Origin: an uncultured virus (IMG/VR IMGVR_UViG_3300010399_000007) | Taxonomy: Duplodnaviria; Heunggongvirae; Uroviricota; Caudoviricetes | Virus record (IMG/VR): IMGVR_UViG_3300010399_000007 | DNA: 64,000 nt | Strand: one strand, 5' to 3' | In this document: positions 13,629 to 62,300 of the stretch, piece by piece | Position numbering within the stretch: the first letter of the stretch is position 1 | Layout of the letters: each line of letters begins with the position of its first letter | The notes under the pieces: generated by a model | Databases searched by the model: none | Told to the model about the DNA's origin: nothing | The model's input: only the letters and a program-made list of their open reading frames with translations | Made by a program: the position numbers and the translations under genes

Positions 13629-13946
13629 TTATTGCTCCTCTCGTCTGTAGTCTTTGAGTTCCTGATACGCGACCTCGCCGTCCGTGATCGCGTCCGCCAG
13701 CCACCGCATGAATGATTGGGCCCTCTCGGCCTTCTGCTTGATTTCGTTGAATTTTCGCCGCCCCCACCACCGATTCACGTTGCATTCAAGGGCGTCCACT
13801 TGCGCCTGCTCGACTTCTTGGCGCGCGCGGCCGTGCAGATACCTGCCGACTGCGCTCGCCAGGAAGTCTTTCACCTGCTCCGAGAGTTGCGCTCGCGCGA
13901 ACAGCTCTCGCTCCTTCTCGTCAATGTAAACGATTTCTTCAACCAT
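13629..13946 (-). CDS. Small conserved head-region protein
   Basis: Helical 105 aa (FL.S.VG.YL) of the type usually found between portal and scaffold. Confidence 0.5.
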   Translation of the reverse strand: MVEEIVYIDEKERELFARAQLSEQVKDFLASAVGRYLHGRARQEVEQAQVDALECNVNRWWGRRKFNEIKQKAERAQSFMRWLADAITDGEVAYQELKDYRREEQ

Positions 13947-15543: not shown

Positions 15544-16313
15544 CAAATGATCCTTTCGTAGTCAACGCGGATGGGACGGATGGAGCGCATGTCGCCCTTC
15601 GCGCGCTTGCGATTGAACGCTTCACGGTACTTCTGGCTCCACATCTCGCGATCGTATTCGCGCTCTTGCGTGTCAGCGTCAGTGAACACTGTGGGCTGCC
15701 CGTCACGCTTGCGCCGGCCGTAGCCAATCGAGAGGACATCCTTGAGGTGCTTTTGCGGGCAGACACCTGCGAGTTGTCGGGCAAACTCGCCGTCACCACC
15801 ATACCCGCCGCCATAACCTCCAGTGAGGTCCAGGTCATAACCGTTGATGGTTTTGAACGCGTTCTTCGTGCAGATGAATGTATTGGGATGCACTTTGCGC
15901 TCAGTGAACTCAGGCGCAAAAGTGCGCTCCACCGTGTAGTGGTGGTTCGGATCGAGCTTCTTCGTCAGCAGCGTGAGCATCGCTTCTGCGGTAAACACGA
16001 TGTCGATGTCCGTCAGCAGCAGCCAGGGGTTCGCGATGTTCTTGCGCGGCTGCGCATTGAAACCGCCGATGTTGCGGCACTGATGCTGGTTCCACGGCAA
16101 GCGCTCTCGCACTCGAAACAGCATCTTGTTGTGCTTGAGCTGTTTGAAGATAGGCTCTGCCGGATACTTGCTGCAGTCATCCACGAGTACAAATTGCATG
16201 TTTTCCGTGAGCGCGCCGCTGTACCGCTCCCACACCGACACCTGATGCTTCAGCATCTCGGGGTTGTTGTAGTACGGTACAACGATCGCGCAAGGTTGAA
16301 CTTCTTCAGACAT
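15543..16313 (-). CDS. GT-A glycosyltransferase (GT2/GT7-like)
   Basis: IVVPYYN, VLVDDCS, RNIG, LLLTDID, INGYD...GYGGD motifs; AGGAG RBS before ATG 16313. Confidence 0.85.
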   Translation of the reverse strand: MSEEVQPCAIVVPYYNNPEMLKHQVSVWERYSGALTENMQFVLVDDCSKYPAEPIFKQLKHNKMLFRVRERLPWNQHQCRNIGGFNAQPRKNIANPWLLLTDIDIVFTAEAMLTLLTKKLDPNHHYTVERTFAPEFTERKVHPNTFICTKNAFKTINGYDLDLTGGYGGGYGGDGEFARQLAGVCPQKHLKDVLSIGYGRRKRDGQPTVFTDADTQEREYDREMWSQKYREAFNRKRAKGDMRSIRPIRVDYERII

Positions 16314-17459: not shown

Positions 17460-18057
17460 ACTTAACCTCATATCCGACTCGGAGCCATTTCGGCGCGCTC
17501 GCGAGCAACGTGCTTGCTCCGAAAGTGTCATCGAGTTGAGTCAGCCATTCTGGGTGCCCGCGACGCACATCGACGATGAGTGAGCCGCTTGGCCGCAGTG
17601 TGCGCTTTACCATGTCGAGGTACACGCACGGTGCGATATGAAAGCACCACGCTTGCGTACTTATGATGAGGTCAAACGACTCAGTGACCTCATCGTCTGG
17701 ACTGTAGAAGTCTTGGTTGCGCACTCCGTTCTTGCGCAGAAAGGTCTGCGTCTGCGTGGCGTTGTTGAACGGCTGGCTGTGTCGATCCACTTGCGCCAAT
17801 GTGTTCTTGCCGTCGAGCACGCACACACGCACGTTGCCGCCGTAATGCTGATTCAGTCGAGCACCGATACCCGAAAGCCCGCCGCCGATATCGAGCAGCG
17901 AACGGCAAGTCTTCGGCAGTGCTGGCTCCATGGAATTGAACACTGCTTCAATGCGGTCGCAGTAGGCTTCGTACCAATCACTCAAGTCCACGTGTGAGAT
18001 ATCGCCGCACTGAACGTACAGGTACTGAAACTGTTGGTCGTCGAAATCGAACTTCAT
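17449..18057 (-). CDS. Class I SAM-dependent methyltransferase
   Basis: LLDIGGG motif I, VCVLDG, FDLIIS..AWCFH, LRPSG; ATGA overlap with the upstream stop. Confidence 0.85.
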   Translation of the reverse strand: MKFDFDDQQFQYLYVQCGDISHVDLSDWYEAYCDRIEAVFNSMEPALPKTCRSLLDIGGGLSGIGARLNQHYGGNVRVCVLDGKNTLAQVDRHSQPFNNATQTQTFLRKNGVRNQDFYSPDDEVTESFDLIISTQAWCFHIAPCVYLDMVKRTLRPSGSLIVDVRRGHPEWLTQLDDTFGASTLLASAPKWLRVGYEVKYAE

Positions 18058-19310
18058 AGTGCGATCACTTTTGGCGAGAAGCGCTTGAGCGTTTCGATCG
18101 CTCCGCCCATCACATAGCCGCAATCACCATTTACGATGATGGCGCTGCAGTCGTCTAGCTCCATGGCGTCGATGGTTGTCTGCATGACAGACGCCGGCCC
18201 CTCAACGTCAATGCGCCATTCACCTGCAAGGTGTCCAGGTTTCATCCGCGTGGTGCCTACCTTGTCGCCGACGCATTCTTTGTAGAACGCGATGTTTTTC
18301 CAGTTGTGCATGTGGATGTTCCGCCGCAGCGCGCCGAACATGCCGAAGTCCGGCTCGAATGCATACACCCGTTTGAAATGCCCTGCCGCCTCGAACGCAA
18401 GAGGCCCCGCTCCTGCGCCCACCAGCACCGCCGTGTGGTCGTCATAGTCGAGCGGATTGGTGTTGCTGTGCATCCATTCGCGCAGCTTCGCAGCGACGCG
18501 ATGCTGTTCTCGCAACGTCTGCTCCGGCCTGTCATCGATTCGCGGCCACCACAAGCCCTCAGCCCGCGGTGTGATATCGACGGCGCCGTATGCTTTGATC
18601 TGCGCTTTGGTGACTTCGACTTTCGGCAGCACCGTTACAGGGGCGATCGAAATGTCTTTGTGGGCGGCGTCGGCGTGTCTCCAGAAGAGACCGATGTGCC
18701 CAAGATCAATCGCCTGCACTCCACGCAACGACAATCGGTGTGCGAGGCAGGTAGCGGTCGGTCCCGCACAGAGCAGGACTGTTTTTGATCCTGTTGCCAT
18801 GACCCGCCGCTCGATATCATCGATCTGTGCATAAGCATCCTCGTAGCTGACAATCACCGAGTGAACCTTGGCCGCACCGGTCTTCCGGAGGAAGTCCGGA
18901 TACAGCGAGCGGTAGCCGCCCCACACCAACGTTACTTCCTTGTCTTTCCACAGCGAGTTGACTTTGTCGAAGTACTCTTTGGTAGCGATCCACGGCGCGC
19001 TGTCGGGCCTCGTGATGAACGCGCTGTAATACTGCTTCTTCTGCCTCTTGAACGGCTCGAAGCGGGGTAGATAGTGTTTCCATGATGCTTGCTTCTCCGG
19101 TGGCATGCGCGAGTCGACATACGGGATGCCAACAAGACACGCGTCGTTCTTCGACGTCATGATCTCGCGCAGTTCTTCAGCGAGCCCCGGCATCATGAGC
19201 TGAGGCACGCACTTCTTTCCTTCGAGGTTGTTCAGTTCGCCATCGCCGTAGCGCGCGATGCTCTTTCCGTTAAGCACTGCTTCCAGTGTCTCAAGTTCTC
19301 CTTTAACCAC
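18054..19310 (-). CDS. GT-D fold glycosyltransferase (DUF1792) fused to an FkbM-like methyltransferase
   Basis: SIARYGDGE, AFITRP, LLCAGPTAT.LA..L...G.QAIDLGH in the N-half; VGAGAG...VYAFEP, TIDAM.LD in the C-half. Confidence 0.85.
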   Translation of the reverse strand: MVKGELETLEAVLNGKSIARYGDGELNNLEGKKCVPQLMMPGLAEELREIMTSKNDACLVGIPYVDSRMPPEKQASWKHYLPRFEPFKRQKKQYYSAFITRPDSAPWIATKEYFDKVNSLWKDKEVTLVWGGYRSLYPDFLRKTGAAKVHSVIVSYEDAYAQIDDIERRVMATGSKTVLLCAGPTATCLAHRLSLRGVQAIDLGHIGLFWRHADAAHKDISIAPVTVLPKVEVTKAQIKAYGAVDITPRAEGLWWPRIDDRPEQTLREQHRVAAKLREWMHSNTNPLDYDDHTAVLVGAGAGPLAFEAAGHFKRVYAFEPDFGMFGALRRNIHMHNWKNIAFYKECVGDKVGTTRMKPGHLAGEWRIDVEGPASVMQTTIDAMELDDCSAIIVNGDCGYVMGGAIETLKRFSPKVIAL

Positions 19311-20004
19311 GCCACATCTCCTTTGCCCAAAACCCATCTGCCATCTCGGAGAAGCGCGGTCTGCCGTGGAATACGACAACGCTTGCGTCCTTCGGTGCGT
19401 CGAGGTGCAACCACGTATCCGTGTCATCAGGATCCGCGCCGGGTCGGGCTTGGTAGTAAGGCGCCACCACGCCAGGAAGAATGTCTTGCCACACAGCGGG
19501 CATAGGTCCGCGCTCACGCATCTCACGTTCCATCCACGCTTGATCGCCTTTCGTGTGCGGAAGAGCCCGAGCAATTGGCTTACCGGCGGCAGCCCACGAC
19601 AACCAATAATGCTCTGTCAATTCGGACACCGTCCACATCATGACTGAGCTATTGAAGCGATGCGTGCGCACGCCATCTCGCATGATGATGAACGGCTCCG
19701 CGCGCTCAAGCATAGACGCAAGCGAACCGCACACGAGTACATCCAAGTCGAAGAAGATGACACGATCGCCACGTTCAAAGGCGCCCGGTCGGAACAACAT
19801 CAGCTTGTCCCAATAGCTGCGAAGGCATTCTTTCGGCGAGACTGCGATAGTGCGGTAGTTGACAAACCCCGACTTATCAGTCAGCACGTGCGGCTCAAGC
19901 GGAATAGGCGAATGCTTTGCAACACTTCGCATCAAATTGTGTACGTACTCGGCTGCGAACTTCTGGCCTGTGTTGACACAGACCGCTTTGATGTGACCGC
20001 CCAT
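19303..20004 (-). CDS. GT-A glycosyltransferase (GT8-like)
   Basis: EYV.NL...V..H, W.KL.LF, FFDLDV, FNSSVM.W, GDQ, VVVFHGRP; AGGAG RBS before ATG 20004. Confidence 0.85.
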   Translation of the reverse strand: MGGHIKAVCVNTGQKFAAEYVHNLMRSVAKHSPIPLEPHVLTDKSGFVNYRTIAVSPKECLRSYWDKLMLFRPGAFERGDRVIFFDLDVLVCGSLASMLERAEPFIIMRDGVRTHRFNSSVMMWTVSELTEHYWLSWAAAGKPIARALPHTKGDQAWMEREMRERGPMPAVWQDILPGVVAPYYQARPGADPDDTDTWLHLDAPKDASVVVFHGRPRFSEMADGFWAKEMWRG

Positions 20005-23607: not shown

Positions 23608-23955
23608 TCAGCGCCCGAACGTAAACACCTGCGTGCGCTTGAACGTAAGCGGCGTGGCGTCGTTCGTCAGCTTCGTGGCGACGGCTTGCAACCATGCGAC
23701 AACAGCGCTGCGCGTGGTCGCATCCCACTTGGCGGAGTCCGTCAACTCGATCTGCGCCTGCAGCACACTCGACTTGGCCGCGCCGGTGAGATACTGAGCG
23801 ACGTACTTTCGCTTGAACGCCTTCGGCGTAGAGTCATTGGAGAGCGCAGTCGCCTGTGCGTTGACCCAGTTGACGATGGCCGTGCGAACTGCGAGACGCA
23901 GATTGGTGGAATCATAGTACGTGACGCTGGCTTGCGCCTTGCTACGAGTGCTCAT
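23608..23955 (-). CDS. Hypothetical protein with internal duplication
   Basis: Two copies of R.A(I/V)V.W....AT.L.ND.TP..FKR. Confidence 0.6.
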   Translation of the reverse strand: MSTRSKAQASVTYYDSTNLRLAVRTAIVNWVNAQATALSNDSTPKAFKRKYVAQYLTGAAKSSVLQAQIELTDSAKWDATTRSAVVAWLQAVATKLTNDATPLTFKRTQVFTFGR

Positions 23956-35833: not shown

Positions 35834-36237
35834 GCTTTCATCGACAGAAAAATGCGCGGATCACCGGCAAGCATCCTGACGAGTGCGACGCGTGCGAAGG
35901 ACTCGGGCAGACGCGACAGTGTGAGACTGTGATGGTGGATGAGATCATTCCGGGGTCGCCGCCTCGCACGCGCCTCGTTACAGCGCGCGACGCCAATGGA
36001 CGTCCGAAGTGTGGCAGTGGGTGTATGAAGTGCGGCGGGACTGGGCGTCTCACTCAGCCGTCAATCTCGGATGACGACGTAGAGGAGCTGCGGCATCTGC
36101 TGGCGCCGCGTCCTGTGCAGGTGGCGCGCGTGGCGCACATCCCTGGACGGCTCCACGCCGGTGTGTTGGCTGCTGCACTGATCGCCGTCGCCACAGCTCC
36201 GATGGAACATCTGCCGCCTTTGGGGAGGTCGTCATGA
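35830..36237 (+). CDS. DnaJ-type Zn-finger protein
   Basis: CDACEGLG and CMKCGGTG. Confidence 0.55.
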   Translation: MSFHRQKNARITGKHPDECDACEGLGQTRQCETVMVDEIIPGSPPRTRLVTARDANGRPKCGSGCMKCGGTGRLTQPSISDDDVEELRHLLAPRPVQVARVAHIPGRLHAGVLAAALIAVATAPMEHLPPLGRSS

Positions 36238-36418
36238 GCACACGATTCATCATGAACAAGCTGGCGAACGTGAACCGCGTGCGGCTTACCATTTACAACG
36301 GCGGCCAGAGCATGTTCACGGATCTCGAACCGGAGGACGTCGAAGAGCTGGCGCGCAACGCCGCCACGTACGTCAAGCAACCGGAACAACCACAGAAACG
36401 CAAAACGAGGAGAGCGAA

Positions 36419-37357
36419 GTGAGCGAGATCATGAATGCGTTGCGGGAAGTGAACCGCCAGTACACTGGGATGAAAGAGCTGTATGACAACACAGTGCGAG
36501 AACTCAATGAGGCGCGTGCGCGACTCGCGAGCTTTCGCGATATAGAGAATAAGTGCCTAGTGCTGGAGGCGACCAACGTTGAGCTGGGACGCTTGCGCTC
36601 TGATGTGGAGAAGCGATACGAAGCGGTGCAGAAGGCACGCGATGAGTTGCGGCGCATGCACGCCGATGCGGAGAAGCGGCACACCACCCTCCAATCTAAT
36701 GTGTGGACGCTCACCGCGCAGCGTGACGCGCTGGAGAATGAACGCGACGCGCTAAAGACACAGATTGCGTCGCACGTTAAAGCGAGCGAATACACGCTGC
36801 GGAAGCACGTTGACCTCACCAAAAAGTATGATGAGCTGAGCCAGCGCTATCAACAGCTCAAAACGATGACGCTCGCGGACCGCTACGGTACCTACAGCGG
36901 TCAGTTCATCATGCCGCGTGGGCGCCTTGTGTATCCGGCCTTTCAGCACGGCAAGACCGCGGTACGCAACGATATGGCCGACGGTTTGGCATACGGCATG
37001 TTGCAGTATCAAAATGCGCCGATACTGCGCACAGCCACGGAGTGGATGCGGTCCAAGAACAACTTGGCCACGGGGCTGCCGGAGCGTCACGGCTTGCGTT
37101 GGACACGCAGCGAGGAAGAGAAGCTGGTGCGCGACTATCGAGAGGGCAAGAGCCTTGATCACCTCGTGAAGATGCACAAGCGAGAGTGGGAAGCCATCGT
37201 CATTCGATTGGCGAAGCTCGCAGGCGGTTGGGGCATGGGCTCTGATGTTGACGCGACAACGCGACAGATGAAGGAATGGTATTTTCCAGTACAGCCTAAG
37301 CCGGGGTTCAAATCCAACCTACTCTGTGTTGGTTTCCAACCGAGGTACTGCAAATGA
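36419..37357 (+). CDS. Coiled-coil + Myb/HTH-like protein carrying core-protein-like motifs
   Basis: ~150-aa coiled coil; RHGLRWTRSEEEKL...H.R...AI..RL.KL domain; see findings. Confidence 0.65.
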   Translation: MSEIMNALREVNRQYTGMKELYDNTVRELNEARARLASFRDIENKCLVLEATNVELGRLRSDVEKRYEAVQKARDELRRMHADAEKRHTTLQSNVWTLTAQRDALENERDALKTQIASHVKASEYTLRKHVDLTKKYDELSQRYQQLKTMTLADRYGTYSGQFIMPRGRLVYPAFQHGKTAVRNDMADGLAYGMLQYQNAPILRTATEWMRSKNNLATGLPERHGLRWTRSEEEKLVRDYREGKSLDHLVKMHKREWEAIVIRLAKLAGGWGMGSDVDATTRQMKEWYFPVQPKPGFKSNLLCVGFQPRYCK

Positions 37358-38028
37358 ACTGGAAACTGCGCTTTTTCCTGGCCGTGCTCATCGAGTATCC
37401 GCTGTGCCTCATCGTAAGCAGCGTGTTCTCGCTGCTGGCACTCATACTCGTACCGCTCGCGTACTGGTTCGGCGAGGTAGGGCCCAACAATCGAGCGCTC
37501 ATAGGATGGCGCGTCTTCAGCGCGCCGTTCGGCGACGGTCGCCGTGTGCGTGCATGGCGCTGGGAGCCCTGGATGTATCCATGGGGCAATGAGGAAGACG
37601 GCATCGACGGACTGCCGCAGAAGGACGGCGTCGTCTTCAAGAACCAGTTCTGGCAGCAGAAGACGCAAGGGTGGTCTGACTTCAAGCGGATCTTCAACTG
37701 GTGTGTGCTCAGGAACTCGGCCAGCAATCTGCGCTTCATGCCGATCACCGGATACCAGATCGACCCGAGTCAAGTGCAAGTCGGCGCGCATGAGCTGCTG
37801 GATGTTAAGGACTACGGTGACGTTGTCGCGCACAGCGGCGAGTGGTACTTCGTGTGGGAGGGCTGGCGCAGCACGCTGTACATCGAATGGAAGGGCGTGC
37901 ACTTCCTCATTGGGTGGAACCAGCGACCTGATGATCCGGATCAGATGCCGGTGCCCACTGCACTCGATCCGACCGACACTCGCGCACCGGGCGTGTCGTT
38001 CAAGCTGCAGATCCGGAGAAACAAATGA
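37354..38028 (+). CDS. Membrane-anchored Trp-rich hypothetical protein
   Basis: N-terminal TM segment; WGNEEDG.DG, W...RN.A.N. Confidence 0.6.
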   Translation: MNWKLRFFLAVLIEYPLCLIVSSVFSLLALILVPLAYWFGEVGPNNRALIGWRVFSAPFGDGRRVRAWRWEPWMYPWGNEEDGIDGLPQKDGVVFKNQFWQQKTQGWSDFKRIFNWCVLRNSASNLRFMPITGYQIDPSQVQVGAHELLDVKDYGDVVAHSGEWYFVWEGWRSTLYIEWKGVHFLIGWNQRPDDPDQMPVPTALDPTDTRAPGVSFKLQIRRNK

Positions 38029-38421
38029 TCATGAAAATCCTTGCGTGGGAGCTGCTGACACTCTGCGCTGTCGGAATTGTCGGTTTAGGCGCACGCCAAC
38101 GGATGCTACAGTGGTGCGCAGCCGTTGCAGTAGTGCTCGGGCTTCTCATCTGTCTCACTCTCGCAATTGGAGTTGCACTGCTGTGAAGATCGTTGAACAC
38201 GTTGGAATGCCAGAAATAGGCGTGTGCCTTTGTGATGCGCCGTTCGGGGAAGTAGTGCGTCTGACCAAAGGCGGCGAGGCGTTCTACATTGTCACATCGC
38301 CGATGGATGGCACTGGTCGCAAAGTGCTCGTGACTCTGGGCGGCGGCTCGCTAAAAGAGTTTCAGCCGAACACTCGCGTAGTTCCGATGAACGCTGAACT
38401 GCATGTGTTTGGAGTGAAGAA

Positions 38422-38727
38422 ATGAACCGCAGAAACTTCTTTCGATTCCTCGGCGGCGCGGCTGTGGCGGTCGCAGTCGCGCCGTTTGTGGCAGAAGCGC
38501 CAAAATTGCTGAGCGGCCAGCTCGGGTCGTATGAGGGCATCAGAATCTACGAACCGTGGCACCACGTTTCAGTGAAAGGAACGTGGCGCGGACCCAAGGC
38601 GAACCTGCACAGCCTGCCGCGCTACGGCGGCGCGCTGAAGGAGAACCTCGTGCAGTCTCAAGTGCGAGATCTCATGTCGAAGGGCGCAAAGTGGGACCAC
38701 CCGCACCGCCTATGGAGTTCTAGATGA
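38422..38727 (+). CDS. Twin-arginine-signal protein carrying capsid- and PolA-like motifs
   Basis: MNRRNFF + hydrophobic stretch; GQLGSYEGIRIYE; YGGALKENLVQSQVRDL. Confidence 0.65.
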   Translation: MNRRNFFRFLGGAAVAVAVAPFVAEAPKLLSGQLGSYEGIRIYEPWHHVSVKGTWRGPKANLHSLPRYGGALKENLVQSQVRDLMSKGAKWDHPHRLWSSR

Positions 38728-39198
38728 GCAAACGCGACTACGAGATCGAGCAGCGGAAGAAGCGCCAGAAGAAGCGACGGAAAGATCAGCGCGCGGCACG
38801 CAAAGAGCGCGTCGCGCAGAAGCACAGTTCGCTAATGCGGGAGGAACCGAGCAATGACTGAGTTCAAAGATGCGTGGAACGAAGCGCAGCAGCTCTACGA
38901 GCTGGTATGCACTAAGGGTGCTGTCATGAGTCAGGAAACACAGATGCTCGTAGCGACCCAACTCTTCTGTGCGTACCGCATCACGCAAGCCATTGAGAGT
39001 GTTGGCGTGGATGTTCAAGCCGTAGAGTTCGCGGTGCGTCGGTCATGAAACCGTGTCGAGCACAGTGCTACATATGCATCACGATGTTGCGCGATATCGT
39101 ACGCGGGTGGAGACGCTGTACGTACTTCAAGTTGAATCCTGGCGGTTGGAACCCGCCGTGAAACAGAAGTTGACCTACACTATGCACAAGGAGGTTTT

Positions 39199-39486
39199 AT
39201 GCTGAAGAATTTCGTTTTGGCAGTGACTCTTGCGGTTGCCGGTTTACTCGCCGCGCAGCCGAGCAAAGCTGATCCGGGTCCTGCGGGCCCTGGTTGGTAC
39301 TTTTTCAGTGTCTGTGCGTATTACGGGACACCCGCTTCTTGGCTGTGCTCTTACGGGCCCTTCGCCTACATCGGGCCTTTTACCAGTGAAGCGAGTTGCA
39401 TTTCGACTCTCCAACTGATGATCAACACTCGCAGCCCGTGGGTGACGGACCCGTACGCGCCGAGCAGTTGTTTCCCGATGTACTAA
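39199..39486 (+). CDS. Secreted Cys/aromatic-rich small protein
   Basis: AGGAGG RBS, Sec signal ending SKA, four Cys. Confidence 0.65.
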   Translation: MLKNFVLAVTLAVAGLLAAQPSKADPGPAGPGWYFFSVCAYYGTPASWLCSYGPFAYIGPFTSEASCISTLQLMINTRSPWVTDPYAPSSCFPMY

Positions 39487-39512
39487 CCACACCAGCGCGG
39501 GCGGAGTAAAAC

Positions 39513-39857
39513 ATGAAGCGTCTGATTTTAGCGATCTTTCTCGCGCCCGCGCTGGCCTTGGCGGCGAAAACGCCAGTGGAGTGGACGGCGCCAGTAACCA
39601 ACACGGACGGCTCGCCACTCACCGATCTGGATCACTACCGACTCACCTGGAAAGCCTGCGGCTCAGCTTCAGTGCAGTCAGTCACCACAAAAGACCGCAA
39701 GTACACGGTAGTTACCAGCGGAATCGCCAAACTGTGCATCAACGTCTACGCCGTAAACACGCTGGGAGTAGAATCGCCGCCGTCGAGCACGCTCGTAGTG
39801 AACGTGACGACTCTCGGGAAGCCCACAACGCTTGGGCAACCCGTAACGCTACCTTAG
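39513..39857 (+). CDS. Secreted fibronectin type III protein
   Basis: Signal peptide (ALA-A); WTAP..NTDGS.L.DL..Y.L.W...VYAVN..G.ES..S. Confidence 0.75.
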   Translation: MKRLILAIFLAPALALAAKTPVEWTAPVTNTDGSPLTDLDHYRLTWKACGSASVQSVTTKDRKYTVVTSGIAKLCINVYAVNTLGVESPPSSTLVVNVTTLGKPTTLGQPVTLP

Positions 39858-39866
39858 GAGGTTTCA

Positions 39867-40220
39867 GTGTCAAAGATTGTCGCAGTTAAGGATATTGGTG
39901 TGCCTGTGCCCAGCGGCGCGGTTGCAGCCGGCGCTCTGCTGGTGTGCTACTACGGCTCGAAGGGTTTCACGCCGAGCTACGATCAGGCCGAGCGCCTCTC
40001 GGTGCCGATCAGCTCGCTTGCGGTCGTGCAGGTGAGCGGCACGCCGTACTACAAGTTCCCGCTGAGCAGCTTGTTTCCGTCATCGTTGCCGGACGGTGAT
40101 TACGACTTCTGCTTCACGCTGCAAGAGGGTCAGTCCGAAGGTGACTTCTCGCCGACGGTGACTGAAACGGTGGACCGCACGCCCCCTTTGGCTCTGGGGC
40201 AGCCCGTCGTCTTGTCTTGA
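39867..40220 (+). CDS. Ig/beta-sandwich-like protein
   Basis: AGGAGG RBS; LPDGDYDF.FT......EGD.S; C-terminus similar to the upstream FN3 protein. Confidence 0.5.
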   Translation: MSKIVAVKDIGVPVPSGAVAAGALLVCYYGSKGFTPSYDQAERLSVPISSLAVVQVSGTPYYKFPLSSLFPSSLPDGDYDFCFTLQEGQSEGDFSPTVTETVDRTPPLALGQPVVLS

Positions 40221-40802
40221 TCTTGAGACTACTGATCAGGCTGTTGCAATTGCTTAGGTAACAACAACCCGCCCTCGCTGCGTATGTGCGTGGCTACACC
40301 TCTTGCTGCATAACTGAGCGGCGAGGGCGGACTTCAGGAGACTCTGTGATTACCTTACTCGATAAGGCTATTCTGATAGAGCTGTACTGCATCCCGAATG
40401 TAGCGCGACGCGCGCCGCGAGCGCCGGGCGAGCAACGGTCACTGGATCGACTCTTTAACGCCGGATTGCTGAACGGCGGGCAGGAAGTGACAGAGAAGGG
40501 CAAGGTTCTCTGCGAGGCGATCCGCAATGTGCTGATGCCGGAGCAGAAGTGGGTGATGCCGTGAGCGAAGAAAGTAAAGAAAACATTGCTGGCATGACGG
40601 GGATCGTAATCGCGGTCATGACACTGATTTGGACATTTGCACTGCTGATGCACGCAACGGACTGGCCGGATCAAGCAGCGGGTATCGTGTGGTGGACTAT
40701 GCCATGGTTCCTAACCAGCATCGCGTTGAGTGCGGGAGCAGCATTTGTGATTTTCTTTCTGGTGTTCGGGCTCATCACAACCGCTTTGGATGCGCTCTAA
40801 CC

Positions 40803-41702
40803 ATGAAACCGATGCTCGCCGCGGACATCACGGATGATCTCGACAAGCTGAGATTCCCGTGCTATGCAACACCGAAGCTCGACGGTATTCGAGCACTGAT
40901 ATTCCCTGACGGCGTGCGGAGCCGTTCACTGAAAGCCATTCCGCACGCGATCACGCAAGGCGCGTTCAGGGAACCGGAGCTGGTCGGGTTGGACGGCGAG
41001 CTTATCGTCGGCAGCCCGACCGCTCCGGACGTGTATCGGCGCACACAGAGCACGGTGTCGACGAAGGATCACCCGGACATCGCGAAGCTGTACGTGTTTG
41101 ATGCGTACGACCCGATCAGCCACGAGATGTGGAGCTACTCAGAGCGCCGCGATTATTTTCGCGAGAGCGTGCTTGACGCCTGCAACCAGCATGTTGTGAT
41201 CGTGCCGTCGTTGAAGTGCGTTGACATGGATGAGCTGCTTGAAGCTGAAGCGGGATTTCTTAACGCAGGCTATGAAGGTCTCATCACGCGATGTCCGCAA
41301 GCGCTCTACAAGTACGGCCGCTCGACGATCAAAGAGCAGGGCATGCTGAAACTGAAGCGCTTCGTCGATGGCGAGGCGGAGATCATCGCCATGGAGGAGG
41401 AGCTGCACAATGCGAACGAAGCGAAAACTAATCAACTCGGCCGCACAGAGCGTTCCTCGCACAAGGCAAACCTCCACGGCAAAGGGTCAATGGGCGCTCT
41501 TGTCGTACGCGATCTTGTCTCTAAGGTCGAATTCCGCATCGGCACCGGGTTCACAGCGGACGACCGGAATTCGTTTTGGCGCGAACGGGACACGCATCTG
41601 CATCGGAACACGGTAGTGAAGTACAAGCACTTCGCTCACGGAGCGAAAGATAAACCGCGGCACCCGAAGTACGTGGGGCTGCGCGAGGAGTTCGATCGAT
41701 GA
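40803..41702 (+). CDS. lig: ATP-dependent DNA ligase
   Basis: KPMLA, motif I PKLDGIR, LDGEL, YVFD, GYEGLI.R, LKLKRF, IGTGF. Confidence 0.95.
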   Translation: MKPMLAADITDDLDKLRFPCYATPKLDGIRALIFPDGVRSRSLKAIPHAITQGAFREPELVGLDGELIVGSPTAPDVYRRTQSTVSTKDHPDIAKLYVFDAYDPISHEMWSYSERRDYFRESVLDACNQHVVIVPSLKCVDMDELLEAEAGFLNAGYEGLITRCPQALYKYGRSTIKEQGMLKLKRFVDGEAEIIAMEEELHNANEAKTNQLGRTERSSHKANLHGKGSMGALVVRDLVSKVEFRIGTGFTADDRNSFWRERDTHLHRNTVVKYKHFAHGAKDKPRHPKYVGLREEFDR

Positions 41703-45726: not shown

Positions 45727-46330
45727 AGAAGACAGAGTCAACACCGTTCCTGCTCATCGAGGACGGCAAGATCGAAGCGTACGGCCAGCTTGTTGGTCGC
45801 CCAGTCTCAGAAGGTTTTTTCTTGGTACAGTTCGAAGGACCCGGTGCCCGTCACGGTCGCATCGTTGCGGCGCCTGAGCTGACGCGGTTCACTCTGTTCG
45901 CCAGCAACGCGGATCGTGAAGCCTTCGTAAATCCGCCGAAATCAGTTGACACGGCAACTCCGACGCCTCCAGAATTGCCGCAAGTTCCTGGCGGGAACTC
46001 TCAAGGAGATAATGCTGAATGAGTAAATACTGGACCGTCGCCGAGCGAGACCCTGAGGGCCCGGCTCGCCCATTCTACGCCTGCGCTCCCAGCGCAGAAG
46101 AAGCCAAGTCCAAAGTTGAGCAGCTCACAGGACCGCTCCACCCCAAGTACATCAAAATCGAAGAGACGACCGCGGACACAATCCCTGAGGGGGAGGACTG
46201 GCTGTGAACCGCATCGCCATTTGGCTTGGACTCGTCGCGCTTGGGTGGGTCGCCTTTGGCGCTTTCGTGTGGGCGATATATCAAGTTTGCAGGACTATCA
46301 AGCTCATCGGGCTTCTGTAAAGGAGATTCT

Positions 46331-49168: not shown

Positions 49169-49699
49169 ATGCGACACAGCGTCCGATGGTTTGTGGATCT
49201 TGGCCGACTCGGCCCTGAATTCAGCCGCGTTCTGATCGACGCGGGCAATTACTTAGACCGGTACATTCTTTACATTTTCGGCGCGACACTGCGCCTGCAC
49301 AAATTCTGGCGCGGCGATGACAATCGTGCGCCGCATGACCACCCTTGGTGGTTCATCACGTTCCCGTTAGTCAGTTACGTGGAGCGGTATTGGACTCCCT
49401 ACAGTGCAATCCACTTCAGCTCTGGTACTTACTCAAAGACTGTCATAGATGGCGTGGAGTTTACGGGAGACATAGACACAGGCTTCTACGCAACGCTCGA
49501 ATGGTACGAGCGCACGCGCACTGTCAAAGCGTGGCGCTTCCATTTCCGCCCGGCGAAGTTCCGACACATCGTTGTAGGGCGCGCGGATGGCAAGACCACG
49601 CCGTTCTGGACGTTCGTCATCAGCGGGCGCGTGAGCAACAGGCGTTGGGGCTTCTGGAAGACACCGGATCAATTCATACCGCACGAGGAGTGGAAATGA
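49169..49699 (+). CDS. Cupin-fold (cysteine-dioxygenase-like) phage protein with internal insertion
   Basis: LH.F..DD.RAPHDHPW.F...RPA.F.H.V...WT.V..G...WGF. Confidence 0.7.
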   Translation: MRHSVRWFVDLGRLGPEFSRVLIDAGNYLDRYILYIFGATLRLHKFWRGDDNRAPHDHPWWFITFPLVSYVERYWTPYSAIHFSSGTYSKTVIDGVEFTGDIDTGFYATLEWYERTRTVKAWRFHFRPAKFRHIVVGRADGKTTPFWTFVISGRVSNRRWGFWKTPDQFIPHEEWK

Positions 49700-52934: not shown

Positions 52935-53317
52935 CCTCAAAAACTGAAAGTCTCGATTTCATTGTGGCGCTGAAGATCGCCGAAGGCGTCTTCGAGCAGT
53001 ACCGAAAGGACTGGCCGTCGTACTGGCGGAAGATGGACGGCACGCCAATCCTGAACGACGTAGCCGTGCGCATGGCGGAAGCGTTCGCGAAGGACGCACG
53101 CTCACGTGGCGAGACGGAATGTGCCCATTGTCGCGAGGTGTTCGAAATATACGCCGGCATGGATGGATTCCGACCGGAGACAGCGCCCGAGGGATACCAG
53201 CAGCGAATCATCGAACAGATGCGTGATGCGGCTCTGAAGGGGCTGAAAGCCACAACACCTCGCGGTTTTCTCGGATCGACGCCAGACGGCGGGATCGATG
53301 ACGCGGATCGTACGTGA
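52931..53317 (+). CDS. Hypothetical protein
   Basis: AGGAGG RBS, coupled to neighbours; C-terminal ATTPRGFLGSTPDG. Confidence 0.55.
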   Translation: MTSKTESLDFIVALKIAEGVFEQYRKDWPSYWRKMDGTPILNDVAVRMAEAFAKDARSRGETECAHCREVFEIYAGMDGFRPETAPEGYQQRIIEQMRDAALKGLKATTPRGFLGSTPDGGIDDADRT

Positions 53318-55515
53318 CAGTACTGCACCTCGACATTGAGACGCGTAGTCGCGCGGACCTAAAAGCCAAGGGTCTGTACAACTACGCGCAGCATAAAAGC
53401 ACACAGCTCATGTGTGCGCAGTTCGCGTTCGACGATGAGCCTGTGCAGCTCTGGGTGCCGGTGCTGGAGATTGAATTGTGCGCGTCGGTGTTCATTCACT
53501 TCCGCCTGAAGCGCCCGAACACCGTCGTACACTTCGGCAAGCGTCCACCTACGCGGATGAAGATGCACATCGTGATGGGCGGCGAGGTCCGCGCACACAA
53601 CGCAGCCTTCGAACGAAACGTGCTTAACGGTCCCGCCGGGGAAGAGGTTGAGTTCCCCAAGCTGATGATCGCGCAGATGGTTTGCACGATGGCGAAAGCC
53701 GCTGCGCACGGTCTGCCGCACGCGTTGGAGCATCTCGCCAAAGCACTCGACACTCATAAGAAAGACGAAGCTGGCGCCAGCTCGATGCGGTACCTGTGCA
53801 AGCCGCGCTCCTCCGGCAAGCTCAAAGGCACGTTCGCGATGCCCGACGAGGAGCCGCTGAAATACGCGGAGATGTACTCGTATGGCATCGATGACGTGGA
53901 AGCGGAACGCGCTGCTGACCGTGTCGTGCCTGATCTCTCGCCTAACGAGCAGCTCGTATATCAGCTCGATCAGCGGATGAACGATCGCGGTTGGGCAGTC
54001 GACCTCGAAGCGAATGGCGATCTGATGTTTGTTCGCGATCAGTACAAGGCAGAGCTGAAAGCGCTCTGCCGCAAGTGGACCGGCGTGTCACCGTCGCAGA
54101 CCGGGGCGCTGGCGGACTGGGTTCGCAAACACGGATATGCGACCCTGGAAAATCTCCAGGTGGAGACCGTTAACAAGGCAGTGAAAGACCCTGTCTGCCC
54201 CGACGAAGTGAAGCGCGTGCTGCGGCTCTTCTCCACCTACAACATGAAGGCTGTGGCGAAGTACGACGCCATTGGACGCGCAGTGTGCGACGACGGTCGC
54301 CTGCACGGCATGTTCTACTACCATGGCGCGAACACGGGTCGCTGGTCCTCCAAGATCGTGCAGTTGCAGAATCTGTATCGGCCGAAGATAGAGGACGCCG
54401 GTACTGCCATACGCCTGTGTAGGCGTCGTGACGAAGCGCTGAAAGCAATGCGCTGGCTATACGACGGGTTGGACCCGATGAAAGTCCTCGGCTCGTGCGT
54501 GCGCGGCGTGCTCGTGTCCGCGCCCGGCAGAGACCTTCTGTTCCCCGACTACGCAGGCATTGAGTCTCGCGTCAATGCGTGGCTCTGGAATGAAGAGTGG
54601 AAGCTACGCGCATTCGAAGCGTATGATGCAGGCACCGGCCCTGACTTGTACAAGGTCGCGTACTCCCGCGCGTTCGGCATTCCAATAGACCAAGTCACGA
54701 AGGCACAGCGCCAAGTCGGCAAGGTCATGGAGCTGGCACTTGGCTACGAAGGCGGTGTTGCTGCGTTTGTGAAGATGGTGTCAACGTATGGCATCGATCT
54801 GCAGGAGCTGACCGAAGCAGCTTGGCCAACACTGCCGGAAGCTGAGAAAGCTGCGGCGATTCGCTGGCTTGAGGAGTCAAAGCGTCGCAAACAGACGTAC
54901 GATCTGATCGATGAGCAGTTCATTGCGTGCGACGTTCTGAAGCGGCTGTGGCGTGACTCGAATCCGCGAATTAAGGCAGGTTGGGCACAGCTTAAAGAAG
55001 TGTCGCTTGAAGCAGTGAAGAATCCCGGTCGCGTATACAAGGCGGCTGGCGGCAAGCTGATGTTCAAGGTGGTCACTGAAAATGGCCATCAGTGGCTGGT
55101 AATGCGCCTCCCTGGCGGGCGTCGGCTGTGGTACTACAAGCCGTTCGTAAAGACGATCGTCAAGAAGCGGAAGTGGCCTGATGGCCGGGTCACCGAAGAG
55201 ACCGAGCAGCAGTTGCGCTTCTACGGCACCGACACGTACACGCGCAAGTGGGGCATCACTTCCACCTACGGCGGCAAGCTCGACGAGAACGCGGTGCAGG
55301 CGATCTCGCGAGACCTGCTAGTGGCCGCGAAGTTCAAATTGGAGCGCGCTGGCTACGATCTCATCGGTTCGGTCCACGATGAGCCCATCATGGAGATTGA
55401 CGAAGGGTGGGGCTCACTAGATGAAGCGAGCGCGCTCATGTGTGATAAGCCTTTGTGGGCTGCAGGATTGCCTATTGCGGTTGAAGGACACAGAGCGAAG
55501 AGGTATCGAAAGTGA
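53314..55515 (+). CDS. polA: Family A DNA polymerase with 3'-5' exonuclease
   Basis: Exo LDIET, AHNA.FE, Y..DDV; TGRW, QLQNL, motif A DYAGIE.R, motif B RQVGKVMELALGY, ENAVQ, motif C VHDE. Confidence 0.95.
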   Translation: MTVLHLDIETRSRADLKAKGLYNYAQHKSTQLMCAQFAFDDEPVQLWVPVLEIELCASVFIHFRLKRPNTVVHFGKRPPTRMKMHIVMGGEVRAHNAAFERNVLNGPAGEEVEFPKLMIAQMVCTMAKAAAHGLPHALEHLAKALDTHKKDEAGASSMRYLCKPRSSGKLKGTFAMPDEEPLKYAEMYSYGIDDVEAERAADRVVPDLSPNEQLVYQLDQRMNDRGWAVDLEANGDLMFVRDQYKAELKALCRKWTGVSPSQTGALADWVRKHGYATLENLQVETVNKAVKDPVCPDEVKRVLRLFSTYNMKAVAKYDAIGRAVCDDGRLHGMFYYHGANTGRWSSKIVQLQNLYRPKIEDAGTAIRLCRRRDEALKAMRWLYDGLDPMKVLGSCVRGVLVSAPGRDLLFPDYAGIESRVNAWLWNEEWKLRAFEAYDAGTGPDLYKVAYSRAFGIPIDQVTKAQRQVGKVMELALGYEGGVAAFVKMVSTYGIDLQELTEAAWPTLPEAEKAAAIRWLEESKRRKQTYDLIDEQFIACDVLKRLWRDSNPRIKAGWAQLKEVSLEAVKNPGRVYKAAGGKLMFKVVTENGHQWLVMRLPGGRRLWYYKPFVKTIVKKRKWPDGRVTEETEQQLRFYGTDTYTRKWGITSTYGGKLDENAVQAISRDLLVAAKFKLERAGYDLIGSVHDEPIMEIDEGWGSLDEASALMCDKPLWAAGLPIAVEGHRAKRYRK

Positions 55516-57644: not shown

Positions 57645-58142
57645 TTAGCGGCTACCCGCTAGCGAAACTCGGCGCTTTGGCGCCGAGAGCCCGGCTCGCA
57701 TGGTGGCAATCGGCAGTGACGAATACGGATCAAGAAGACACGCAATCCGCACCGCCTCCCGAGCCGAGCGACCACAGTGCATAGCCGCGAGCGCAGCCTT
57801 ATAACCACTGCCAACTGCAGTGAACGGGTCTTGAACCTCTACGAGTCTGCAAAGGTGGTTGGCGTGGAAGAGCTTGCCGCGATCATGAACAAGTACGGCA
57901 AAGTCTTCTTCCGTGTCGAGATCAGCGAGGATCTCAGGCACTGGCTTGCTAGACCCGTACCAGTCGACGAATATCATACCAGCGTAAGTTCCCCCGGCCG
58001 TGGCGATCACCACATCGCGTTTTCCGATTCGCTTTCGAAATAGCTTCTGGCAGGTGCGAATGACCGTGCCGCCTGCCTCACTCTCCCAAGTCTCGCGGCT
58101 GTCAGCCGCGAAGACTCCGTCGCGATACGCGATGCTGGTCAT
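57645..58142 (-). CDS. Ntn-hydrolase (HslV/proteasome beta-like) peptidase
   Basis: N-terminal nucleophile MT(S)IA, AADSR, AVGSG..AA.AAM..G.SA.EAV..A...DPY. Confidence 0.75.
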   Translation of the reverse strand: MTSIAYRDGVFAADSRETWESEAGGTVIRTCQKLFRKRIGKRDVVIATAGGTYAGMIFVDWYGSSKPVPEILADLDTEEDFAVLVHDRGKLFHANHLCRLVEVQDPFTAVGSGYKAALAAMHCGRSAREAVRIACLLDPYSSLPIATMRAGLSAPKRRVSLAGSR

Positions 58143-58733: not shown

Positions 58734-59372
58734 TCACACCTCCTTGAGACCGAGAGCCGCGCGAGCGCGTTTCCAATACTTGACGCGGGCATCCAGCCCG
58801 GTCTTTCCGCCGTTGATTCGGCGAGAGATAGCAAAAAAGTCCGCCTGATCGTCATCATCAGGTAGGTCATCCGCCAACGGATTAAGGTCCATCGACGCCC
58901 AAATATAGCCGGCGCTGAGCGACCCGTACTGCTTCGTGCAGAGCATGTCAGGGCAGTCAAGCAGTGGCGCACCGAGCACCGCCGCGAGACGTCGGTACCA
59001 GTCCTTGCCCGTGGCCATGATGAGTCCGCGACCGCGGAACTTCCAGCCCTCGCCGCTCGACTCGTCACCGTTGCCCATACGGTTCGCGTAGATGAAATCG
59101 GCGAGCCCGTGTGAGTTGTTGGCGTACTTCGTCGCGAGCGCATCTGTGGTGAATCGCTTCGGCCAGACAGCTTTGAGGCGATCCGGGGTGTACCGCAAAT
59201 TCTCTTCGAGTCGCGTTGTTTCCAGACTCTCATGCGCGATCTGCGCGAGGAAGGCAGCCTGTCGATCTGGAGTGCTGATCTTGAAACGCGTACACGTATC
59301 AATGAGGCAAAGGCCCCAGCCGACAGGGTCTTTGCAGTTGGGCATCACTGCTCGTACAACGTCTGGTGTCAC
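58734..59372 (-). CDS. Endolysin, glycoside hydrolase family 19
   Basis: AAFLAQIAHES, EENL.Y, YANRMGNG...SG.GWKFRGRG.I..TGK, RRINGG..GL..R. Confidence 0.93.
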   Translation of the reverse strand: MTPDVVRAVMPNCKDPVGWGLCLIDTCTRFKISTPDRQAAFLAQIAHESLETTRLEENLRYTPDRLKAVWPKRFTTDALATKYANNSHGLADFIYANRMGNGDESSGEGWKFRGRGLIMATGKDWYRRLAAVLGAPLLDCPDMLCTKQYGSLSAGYIWASMDLNPLADDLPDDDDQADFFAISRRINGGKTGLDARVKYWKRARAALGLKEV

Positions 59373-62300
59373 TCCTGCGCCTCCCTTTGCGAGTCAAACT
59401 TCCGGTAAAGGTACCGCAAGCCGGGCTCGACGTGGAGTCCATTTACAGCCTCGGCGCTGTACTTTGCTTTTGCCTTTGCGCTCGACACAAGATCGTTCGC
59501 TTTTATCGCTACGCCAGGATTTTTACGGTTAAATTGCAGAATTTCCTGCATTGTGTCCTTGACACCTTGCGGATCATCGTTATGCGCGGCGAGGTACAAC
59601 TTGCTTTTCAGGAACGCTTTACGCGTCATGATCTGCTGACTGTACGCACTGACAGTGCGATTCTTCTCATTCTGCAGAGCCACGTCGTACGGTGTGAAGC
59701 CTATACCTTGCAAGAACACATCGTACTTGCTGATCTGATCAGCAGGCTTGACGACATCACCGCGAACATTGGTCACACCGTCGCGCGCGTAGCGGATCGC
59801 TTTCAATACGTCAGCGAATGCTTTCGGCGTGAGCTTCTCCAAACCGCGCTGACCGAACCCGTCGGGGCCGGGTTGCGCAGCATCGAACGCTCGCGTTACA
59901 AGCCCGCCAAGCGGGCCGGCAGCCTGACCGATATAGAAGTTTGCAAGCTCCTTACCTTCCATGCCTGTCGGCGGCTCCTGCACCCAAAGGTTGTTGAGCC
60001 CCACACGGCTGTTCAGCGCCATGCCGCCATAAGCGCTGACCGGACCGTCGAGCACTGCACTTGCCGTGCTTTCGCCTGCGTGCTCAGTCATCCATGCACG
60101 CATCTCAGCTTCGGCGTCGTACGGTTTGTCTTCATCGCCGAAGATAGTGTTGATGATTCCCGTAGCGGCCCACCAGAGTGGCATGCCCGAGGCACCCGCG
60201 AATAGCATTGTTTGCCCGAGGATGCCGACAAACCGGCGACGAGCTTCCTTGCGTACATCAGGAGTCGCGCCGCGCAAGCTGTTGTTGAAGTCTCGCGCAA
60301 GGCGGTAAGTCATGTTGGCAGAGTACTGACGGAACAAGAGCAGAACTTTGGCCGTGTCGCTCTGCAAGTAGCGAGCACGATTCGTATTCGAGTAGTCGAA
60401 GTGCGAATCCCACACGATGTCTTCGGCCTGATCGATTGCAGCTTCGTGGCTCAGGTTCTTGCGGCGTCCAAGTCGGTAAGCGGCCAGGAATGTGCTCTGT
60501 CGGTTTCCTTCTTCCATTTGGTGGAACATCCACGAGACGGCATTCATAGCTTTGTTACGCGCGCTGCCGTAGTCCATGCCTTCCTCGCCAATCTGCGCAA
60601 GATCATGAGCCATCGTCTTGTCAAAGAGCCCGATGCGTTTTGCCTCGTCGAATGCAAGACGTTCGTCACCGCGCAGGCGATTCGCGAGCTGCCCGCGACT
60701 ACCGGCCCACTGCATGCTCGCGCGAGTCAATTCAATTCCTGCCCCGGTCCAGTTGAACTTGGCGGCTAGGGTTGGAAACGCCACCATGGGATTCTGCGTA
60801 AGGTTCACGAGCGCCGCCGCCGGAGACGCGCCTAGGTAGTACGTGAATCCAAGCGATGTGAGCGCTGTGGCAATGCCGGATGCCTTGGGATTGCGCATCC
60901 ACTCGTGCCGCTTGTCGAACTCCTTCGACACCGCAGCAGCCCACTTCTCCTCCGGAGTACGGCTCAGCCCCACTGCCTCAACCTTCATCTGCTCCAGATG
61001 GCGTTCGAGCGTGTGCATGTGCTCCAGCTTCGCGATCTGATGCGCACCGTGGAACTTCTGGTATCCAAAGTTTCGGAGTGCATCCATCGTGAAGCCGAGA
61101 CGCCCCTTGCGATGGATGAAGTGCTTGCGCATGCTCATCTCCGGCATCGCGCGCAAGTAGTTCTGCCACACCTCGTCTGCCAGCTCCGGATCCACCTGCT
61201 GCAGTAGGTCCGTGATCTTAGCGACGAAATTCGGATCGATGCGCCGAGCCATCTCACGATCTTGCATCTGCACGCCGCCATCAACTTTGTATCCCGCCTT
61301 CTCCATCTCGGCCAGCCATTGCCGTTGCTCGCTAGGCTTTTCGAATCGCGTAAACGACACGACTGTACCGTCAGCATCCTTTGCCACTGCCCAGTGCTTG
61401 CCGTAACGGCCAAGCGGGAAGTAAGGCCCCTCCACACGACCGGCTTCGAACTTCTTACGCAACTCTGCCAGCAACGATTGCTTCGTCTTGCCGTCAGCGT
61501 CTGTGGCCTCAATGCGTGACTGCAGCCCTTGCATGACGAGATCGCGGTCTGCGGCGTAGCTGTCGCGTACGTCGATGTAGAGCGCCTTAGCTTCGCCCGG
61601 TAATGCGTTCCAGAACTTCTTCAGCGCCAGCCATTGCTGCTTGCGTTGTCGCTCGATCGCATGCTGTTCTGGGGTGTCCGGCGACGAATACTTCGGACGG
61701 TATTCATTTGCAGGCTCAACGCCTGCAAGCGTGGCGGCGTGCATCAACTCGCCGAGCGTGCGCGCATCATCGCGATTGCTGCGAATGAACTTGACCCACC
61801 GGTTTGCAACCTTGTCGGCTTTCACGAGCAGTTCATTGCGGCGACCGTCCATGCGCGCCGCCTCTCGCACGTACGCGCTCGCGGAGTTCATCTTGCCCGG
61901 CGCCACAAAGTCCGGAAGATTACGCCGCGGAATCGCCCCGAGGAGAGCTTCGATGTGGTTCTCGCCAAAGTCGCGGATGGCATCGAGCCGTGAGCGTACA
62001 AAGCCGGGATTGTAGTTGGCTTGTTCTTCCACAGTGGCGCCTTGCTTCAAGAAGACGTTGAGCGGATGCCCGTCCGGCAGCCGCTCTGCCTGCTTTTCGT
62101 AGCCTTTCTCGGCGAAGCGCAAATGACCATACCGATCCGTCGCATGGGGGCTGCGGTCACGCAGCGCGGTGCGCGCTTTGCGCAGAAGCGCACTGACGTC
62201 GGCGTCGGTCCAGGCACGCACAGCGCCAATCCGACGAAGCGCGGCACGCACTGCATCCACAACCTTTCGGAAGATGGAGGGATCAGACATTCTCTCGGCG

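Follow-up and report, generated by a model that had tools for sequence, protein, structure and literature searches.

A small, fast-evolving gene of an uncultured soil phage combines a predicted Tat-type leader with polymerase-like sequence

The window analysed here is a stretch of 64,000 nucleotides from the uncultured virus IMGVR_UViG_3300010399_000007 (Caudoviricetes), nearly the whole of a 64,961-bp phage contig, and our subject is an open reading frame (ORF) of 101 codons at 38422-38727. We find this ORF to be a genuine gene of a very rare family. At roughly even odds (probability about 0.5), we read its product as a fast-evolving, envelope-targeted accessory protein of chimeric origin in a phage of soil and rhizosphere. 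In a host of Gram-negative type, a twin-arginine (Tat)-type leader would direct the product to the inner membrane and periplasm, perhaps staying uncleaved as an N-terminal anchor. The tail of about 75 residues would mirror, at its conserved positions, short conserved stretches of phage family-A DNA polymerase (PolA). It may consist of in-frame scraps of core genes, acquired in an old capture behind a pre-existing leader and retained long enough to diverge to 40-50% identity; the ORF would hold PolA scraps only, and in its relatives a further PolA motif and a single unit of the tail-fibre repeat would be added. The tail would lie in the periplasm and could act at the envelope, for example in phage exclusion or envelope remodelling, alongside neighbouring small signal-peptide and membrane proteins.

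The gene and its start signal are placed as follows.

38411-38414, plus strand: Shine-Dalgarno-like GGAG, 7 nt before the ATG
38422-38727, plus strand: the ORF, 101 codons plus TGA; the product starts MNRRNFF, followed by a hydrophobic stretch

A first-pass annotation, made from the sequence alone, had proposed a 101-residue product with MNRRNFF and a hydrophobic stretch at this place, and in this it was correct. We regard the ORF as real because of its Shine-Dalgarno site, its overlaps with both neighbours, its codon composition, its integrity in other contigs and the existence of homologues. The ATG overlaps the TGA of the upstream gene (ATGA, 38422-38425), and the TGA overlaps the ATG of the next gene (38724-38727). 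GC fractions at codon positions 1/2/3 are 0.62/0.48/0.73, compared with 0.63/0.41/0.72 in the PolA gene of the window. The frame is open in a sister contig in IMG/VR (21.4 kb, 99% identical to the window), and the first 97 codons show no stop or frame change in contigs from four metagenome runs, three of which span most or all of the ORF and one of which (X9) covers only the first 45 codons. No plus-strand terminator-like site was found between 35 and 41 kb. The phage is present in contigs of soil and rhizosphere metagenome runs (12 runs listed), none of these 12 being an RNA dataset.

The leader has two parts.

38428-38445, plus strand: n-region RRNFFR, residues 3-8, present in four of five family members
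38446-38499, plus strand: Ala/Gly/Val-rich h-region (residues 9-23) and AEA c-region (residues 24-26), with Pro at +1

This arrangement resembles Tat signal peptides (PF10518/TIGR01409) in having, at the N-terminus, a polar residue, two arginines, any residue and two hydrophobic residues (N-RR-N-FF-R at residues 2-8, following the pattern Z-R-R-x-hydrophobic-hydrophobic), then a basic residue, a weakly hydrophobic, Ala/Gly-rich h-region of 15 residues and an A-x-A c-region. The consensus M-(N/Q)-RRNF-(F/L)-R is shared by four of the five family members, with a variable h-region and a constant RR motif; the fifth member, on a contig of 1,254 nt, begins inside the hydrophobic stretch. The h-region is the less hydrophobic one by comparison: its 15-residue Kyte-Doolittle maximum is 2.19, and the Sec-type leaders of two downstream genes reach 2.57 and 2.67, membrane helices of two upstream genes 2.85 and 3.04. 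A scan of every start codon of the window returned no other convincing Tat-like N-terminus. From these features we infer a leader of Tat type, conserved in the family, and export of the product by the Tat route. The ORF departs from typical Tat signal peptides in scoring just under both model cut-offs, in the Pro at +1, and in carrying its leader on a phage tail of 75 residues without a predicted fold and not on a cofactor-binding enzyme. Proline at +1 of an A-x-A site disfavours signal peptidase I, and the leader is possibly retained as an N-terminal anchor because Pro follows AEA.

Literature searches, at title level, turned up neither phage Tat-leader mini-proteins nor polymerase-derived small proteins, and the four 'phage' passages of a 2026 Tat review describe none either. 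A second small ORF with this leader lies on an unrelated, lower-GC phage contig of 71.7 kb (L008:5594-5929); there an internal ATG opens the same MNRRNFFR leader, which is followed by an unrelated tail, and a giant protein of 2206 residues adjoins it. Tat-type leaders on small phage proteins may be commoner than described.

The polymerase-like part of the ORF, and its counterparts in the window's own PolA gene, are the following.

38503-38556, plus strand: residues 28-45, KLLSGQLGSYEGIRIYEP, the 'capsid-like' string of the first-pass annotation, which aligns to a hairpin stretch of some phage PolAs
38578-38622, plus strand: residues 53-67, GTWRGPKANLHSLPR, a degenerate copy of a family motif that in relatives matches TGRW...LQNL of PolA
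38611-38679, plus strand: residues 64-86, matching the PolA segment just before motif C and including the string at 38623-38676
53314-55515, plus strand: PolA gene of the window, a family-A DNA polymerase
54313-54384, plus strand: residues 334-357 of the window's PolA, the TGRW...LQNL motif matched by two relatives, P0009 and P0005
55267-55320, plus strand: the matching stretch in the window's PolA, just before motif C

The 11 identities in 18 positions that had been reported between 38623-38676 and the window's PolA are there, and the likeness is supported from outside the genome. Within the genome, BLASTP of the ORF product against PolA gives E 3e-4 as a single comparison; with 500 six-frame ORFs of the window as the search set E rises to 0.024, and with 63 curated genes to 0.012. 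Measured against the phage's own proteome, the claimed match is thus borderline (E 0.012-0.024), and it is the outside evidence that lifts it above chance. The top PHROG match of the ORF product (P0001) is phrog_7766, 'DNA polymerase' (E 0.003), which is independently also the top PHROG match of the relative P0006 (E 0.0017). A tblastn search against all cultured phages returned 251 records, each weak (E 0.2-10). Among the best 30 rows, 27 are annotated as DNA polymerase, one as hypothetical, and two are unannotated; among 60 evenly spread rows the corresponding labels are DNA polymerase (31), hypothetical (21), 'coil containing protein' (1) and none (7). No other function appears among the listed rows, and the rows without a label are from phage groups that also supply labelled rows. 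Three records were examined; in each, the match sits just ahead of motif C, some 65-130 residues from the C-terminus of PolA.

Alignment of the family with a profile of five PolAs by hhalign gave 85% probability and E 6.6e-6 (residues 29-79 against PolA 598-665), three of those five PolAs having been picked for matching the ORF. Because of this pre-selection, we built a second, unbiased profile from the window's PolA and ten PolAs spread across the ranking by likeness to it (11 PolAs). On this profile the ORF scores 11.6 bits (residues 64-86), P0009 12.4, P0006 7.9, P0005 7.0 and P0004 5.1; among 2000 shuffles of the five proteins, of which only 1109 obtained a score, the highest value was 4.6 bits. 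When searched with the same profile, 1447 six-frame pieces of the window yielded matches to PolA and to the ORF only (E 0.0047), the next piece standing at E 7.8. Residues 28-45 are not detected by it; the extension back to residue 28 is visible only with some PolA lineages, for example as eight identities in ten positions to one hairpin stretch. Given the PHROG, tblastn, hhalign and unbiased-profile evidence from outside the genome, the PolA likeness of the ORF is, at the level of sequence comparison, real, and its secure core is the segment of 23 residues that precedes motif C.

The ORF is not a polymerase, because only 23-60 residues match and the catalytic motifs and the exonuclease domain are absent: a search for PF00476 found no match at E up to 1, and motifs A, B and C are missing. 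What it shares with family-A DNA polymerases (PF00476, in the phage clade of the window's PolA) is the segment before motif C, at residues 64-86; relatives in addition match the TGRW...LQNL motif that precedes motif A. At that place the solved mycobacterial Pol I (6vdc) reads TGRLSS...NLQNI.

The family is small. An HMMER scan of 1.84 billion representative proteins returned four small homologues (E 1e-11 to 5e-4), namely P0004 (137 residues), P0005 (84), P0006 (105) and P0009 (108); two larger proteins, P0007 (1737 residues) and P0008 (399 residues), were discarded as spurious, since they matched via internal repeats. Among 5.8 billion clusters, a word-indexed search recovered the ORF itself only (one of 18 candidates), and a search with the family profile gave the same five sequences among 8000 scored candidates. 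The five clusters stand at 40-55% identity and keep the start codon and open frame. No homologues were found in cultured phages, in 185,579 bacterial and archaeal genomes, or in IMG/VR besides the sister contig (where one unrelated phage ORF shares the leader only). A metagenome scan yielded the sister contig and a PolA gene. At the nucleotide level, blastn of 36000-41000 found no relatives of the phage among 50,697 cultured-phage records.

Two of the relatives, P0009 and P0005, are without the pre-motif-C stretch and match instead the TGRW...LQNL stretch (LQNLPR type) before motif A. Against the window's PolA, P0009 reaches E 5e-7 (residues 39-91 against 334-373) and P0005 E 0.010; three of four tblastn matches of P0009 fall within polymerase genes. 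All four relatives further hold, after the PolA-like part, one unit of a repeat that is found in the tail fibre of the window; the ORF has none.

4942-7311, minus strand: tail-fibre gene (PHROG 14100 type); its product has a DTDTG-type unit repeated nine times and, at the C-terminus, an S74 chaperone domain

A repeat profile built from the nine units of this fibre scores the four relatives at 16.4-27.6 bits (shuffle maximum 9.6) and the ORF at -1.8 bits, and BLASTP against the fibre gives E 1e-6 for both P0005 and P0009 and E 60 for the ORF. In the aligned sequences, the layout of the family is a leader, a PolA-like middle, an optional pre-motif-C stretch and a fibre unit; the ORF holds the longest pre-motif-C stretch of the family and is without the fibre unit. 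The middle segment may be read in two ways, as the PolA region before motif C or as the TGRW...LQNL motif. On either reading, stretches that are non-adjacent in PolA sit side by side in the family.

Each of the matches to PolA and to the fibre is short (about 16-30 residues) and individually weak, with tblastn starting at E 0.2, no PolA at E 0.001 in the 1.84-billion-protein scan, and within-genome values (E 0.012-0.024) near what multiple queries give by chance. These points would suit an ordinary small exported ORFan with a real leader, in which the likeness to PolA and tail fibre arose by chance or through convergence of Gly/Pro/Trp-rich turns and carries no signal of origin. We consider this account unlikely. 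The weak matches are not scattered: 27 of the best 30 and 31 of the 60 spread rows are PolA, none has another function, and they stem from at least eight phage groups and fall at the same place in the gene. Two members independently match the same PHROG, all five beat 2000 shuffles on the unbiased PolA profile, and the tail-fibre unit scores 16-28 bits in all four relatives against the shuffle maximum of 9.6.

Recent copying from PolA or another part of the window was considered and rejected, as blastn-short found nothing past 13-nt chance words; the motif region of the ORF shares just 35 of 54 nucleotides with the window's PolA gene, which argues against recent copying. None of the six frames holds further PolA remnants flanking the ORF. 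A hint in a MAFFT alignment that the leader derived from the PolA helix preceding the hairpin was likewise rejected, because residues 1-28 of four members, when aligned locally with five PolAs, gave z scores of -1.7 to 3.0, at scattered places. Since there is no DNA likeness elsewhere in the window, no flanking PolA remnant and no PolA-like leader, an old capture seems likelier than either a duplication of recent date or the decay of a second polymerase gene. Illegitimate capture of gene fragments as a source of small genes is an idea from mycobacteriophage genomics. The present gene is like such cases in its size of about 100 codons, its ORFan status and its composition from pieces of larger genes, and unlike them in that the pieces are short core-gene motifs, not whole domains, behind a conserved Tat leader.

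The gene varies more than its neighbours. Between the window and the sister contig, the ORF has four non-synonymous and two synonymous differences and a terminal indel, compared with 92 and 271 in 23 other genes (Fisher p 0.042). In four pooled metagenome runs, it has five non-synonymous and four synonymous sites, and four flanking genes have four and 12. The amino-acid changes V17A, E44G, P45S, A71T and P94Q avoid the family-invariant positions. The sole indel, a 1-nt insertion of G after 38713 that the sister contig shares with runs X2 and X3, alters only the last few residues, within the following segment.

38680-38724, plus strand: variable C-terminal tail, residues 87-101

With this insertion, the stop codon comes directly before the ATG of the next gene, with no overlap. 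The gene thus stays open and evolves fast, a pattern that fits an arms-race surface protein and weak constraint alike.

The product has no confident predicted fold, in agreement with the first-pass annotation, which had described an ORF with no fold of its own. From the five-sequence alignment, AlphaFold2 built a model with pLDDT 42 and pTM 0.22; the Atlas model of the same sequence has pLDDT 0.44. In the ESM Atlas, feature matches reached at most 0.88 (leads only) and structure matches stayed at TM below 0.5. Because the alignment is shallow, the low pLDDT is weak evidence for disorder.

Several of these results weigh against an envelope-targeted protein of chimeric origin. The Tat models both score the ORF under their curated cut-offs: its sole Pfam match is TAT_signal PF10518, at 17.7 bits against a cut-off of 22.7, and its sole NCBIfam match is TIGR01409, at 16.3 bits against 16.7. 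Pro at +1 disfavours normal signal-peptidase cleavage of the leader. The variation data show an ORF under relaxed constraint, evolving faster than its neighbours. Homologues are absent from cultured phages, from the bacterial and archaeal genomes and from IMG/VR beyond the sister contig, and no confident fold is predicted. The within-genome PolA match is borderline, with about three such pairs expected by chance from 63 queries. The collinear alignment of residues 28-87 leans partly on pre-selected PolAs, and the unbiased profile retains 64-86 only. Finally, simple collinear descent could account for at most one of the two readings of the middle segment, and because these conflict we offer the origin story as an inference. 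The whole claim is based on five sequences from uncultured phages. If it is true, the gene would be a compact, datable example of new phage accessory genes arising from short in-frame scraps of core genes, and its product would join, as a phage case, the few viral proteins that apparently use the host Tat route. The family belongs with known kinds of gene, the phage accessory envelope proteins and the chimeric ORFans.

The variation, with a ratio of non-synonymous to synonymous changes above that of the neighbours and a tolerated 1-nt insertion near the 3' end, would also suit a decaying relic: the remains, without function, of a polymerase gene that was displaced or duplicated, with a frame still open by chance in a GC-rich genome. 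The lack of a predicted fold and the plasticity of the locus, which has a 201-nt deletion variant just upstream, point the same way. We hold such a relic to be as improbable as the ORFan account. Five clusters at 40-55% identity retain the start codon, the RRNF motif and the open frame, and the five amino-acid changes listed above spare the family-invariant positions. The ORF has a ribosome-binding site, translational coupling at both ends and normal codon-position GC, and no other PolA remnant flanks it in six frames.

The conserved positions themselves suggest a bolder reading, which we judge a good deal less probable than either of these: a functional mimic or decoy, with a tail selected for displaying PolA peptides (in relatives also tail-fibre peptides) to a hypothetical recogniser of such motifs. 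The target could be a partner of the polymerase, a sensor of the host or a protein of a rival phage, though each is a long shot. The Tat leader would tether the complex or drag it to the membrane, in a hitchhiker-type sequestration, or would occupy the translocon, a mechanism to which we give little credence. Tat is the one export route known to carry folded proteins and complexes, which counts for this reading. So do the family-invariant positions, which are largely PolA-conserved residues (W55, L62, L65, P66 and R67, with YGG and EN-VQ where present), and the fact that the motifs have outlasted 45-60% divergence with no copying at the DNA level. On the other side, the arginine of TGR is missing, the ORF is without the tail-fibre unit and two relatives without the second PolA stretch, so that only the middle motif is universal; fast evolution fits weak constraint equally well. 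In its general form, that soil phages keep Tat-targeted mini-proteins whose tails are strings of their own most conserved replication and tail peptides, selected as mimics, the proposal is very improbable. The same low standing applies to its specific form, in which the strings would be two non-adjacent PolA motifs, plus one tail-fibre unit in relatives, and a captured partner would be tethered or exported via Tat. If it is true, phages would have in these proteins a counter-defence or inter-phage weapon of a new kind.

The first-pass annotation had seen in the ORF a mirror of two unrelated core proteins, capsid and polymerase, with a LamG-like string between them. Its capsid match concerns the following features.

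11504-12433, minus strand: HK97-type major capsid protein (MCP) gene
11735-11782, minus strand: the MCP string it had quoted, a chance-level match

All the quoted strings (38506-38553 in the ORF, 11735-11782 on the minus strand in the MCP gene and 55267-55320 in PolA) lie where it had placed them. The capsid match has seven identities in 16 positions, with E 0.006 as a single comparison and E 1.1 against the ORFs of the window (rank 4), which is chance level. In several phage PolAs, the stretch before motif C is a better match to residues 28-45 than the MCP is, and the Pfam scan found no capsid family match to the ORF. The string WHHVSV is present, as claimed; its reading as a LamG signature finds no support, as a scan with E allowed up to 1 gave neither LamG nor concanavalin families. 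The segment that contains WHH has no counterpart in the four relatives, and these residues are not conserved in the family; the mature part of the product has 75 residues, compared with about 150-200 in a LamG-type beta-sandwich. Because the capsid match is at chance level and LamG has no match, only one core protein, PolA, is mirrored in the ORF. The description as a string of core-protein motifs suits the small family; for the ORF itself it reduces to the PolA likeness.

The ORF had also been called the clearest example of a genome-wide mosaic. All-against-all BLASTP of 63 genes gave three non-self pairs at E<0.05 (the ORF with PolA, the tail fibre with 49169-49699, and a 62-residue ORF with the large terminase). 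This is about the chance number for 63 queries, so a genome-wide mosaic is not demonstrated. A capsid, LamG and polymerase mosaic, although its strings exist and its PolA part is real, is the least probable reading of all, with an MCP match at E 1.1 in the genome, no LamG match, a WHH that the family does not conserve, and roughly a chance number of similar pairs among the genes.

The small ORFs in these pairs are minor observations. The 176-residue ORF at 49169-49699 (plus strand), of no known family, has an 11-residue stretch like the core of the tail-fibre repeat (eight of 11 positions, one unit); the repeat profile gives it 12.1 bits (E 0.02 in the six-frame set), and BLASTP against the fibre E 0.027. 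This ORF could be another small gene that carries a scrap of a core gene, or the match could be due to chance. The 62-residue ORF at 46019-46207 (plus strand) weakly matches the large terminase (30% over 56 residues, E 0.018 in the genome), at chance level. Residues 70-96 of the 101-codon ORF weakly match an ORF at 23608-23955 (minus strand; E 0.054 in the genome).

Returning to the envelope-targeted reading, the ORF lies in a cluster of small genes whose products have hydrophobic segments, in a genome arranged as follows.

About 1 to 26.9 kb, minus strand: structural genes, including small and large terminase subunits, portal, HK97-type capsid protein and tail fibre
About 27 to 57.6 kb, plus strand: early and replication genes, including ligase, primase-helicase, exonucleases, gp2.5-like SSB, PolA and helicase
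37354-39857, plus strand: small envelope-directed gene cluster

Strongly hydrophobic N-terminal segments occur in five of ten consecutive genes (37354-40220). Upstream of the ORF, the cluster encodes a membrane protein of 224 residues (weak DUF7338 match) and a protein of 53 residues with two hydrophobic stretches; downstream are proteins of 95 and 114 residues with Sec-type leaders, the latter with a weak match to a minor-tail-protein PHROG. Because its neighbours are of membrane or Sec type, the product can be placed, conditionally, at the envelope, in an accessory set that would alter the surface or periplasm of the infected cell. A 66-nt contig of run X2 joins 38190 to 38392 and omits 201 nt (38191-38391), nearly all of a 72-residue upstream gene; since this contig skips the segment, gene content just upstream of the ORF varies in the population.

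Small phage proteins of the envelope that block superinfection include T4 Imm and Sp, P22 SieA, and lipoproteins of the Ltp and Cor types, which use Sec or lipoprotein signals or transmembrane helices; small envelope proteins of this sort are best known for excluding other phages. The ORF product resembles them in small size, an N-terminal targeting signal, an early or accessory position, fast evolution, and a place in a cluster with further membrane or secreted proteins of small size. It differs in its Tat leader, and the likeness is drawn without a relation in sequence or fold. By this analogy, exclusion activity of the product would be a guess.

Elsewhere in the window, glycosyltransferase-like and methyltransferase-like genes lie within the structural module (13939-15546 and 18054-19574, both minus strand). 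At the far end, 59369-63844 (minus strand) encodes a protein of more than 1491 residues that continues past the window end and has a strong match to DarB-like antirestriction/helicase proteins (E 2e-204). An HslV-family peptidase gene and a holin-like gene adjoin it (57645-58142, minus strand).

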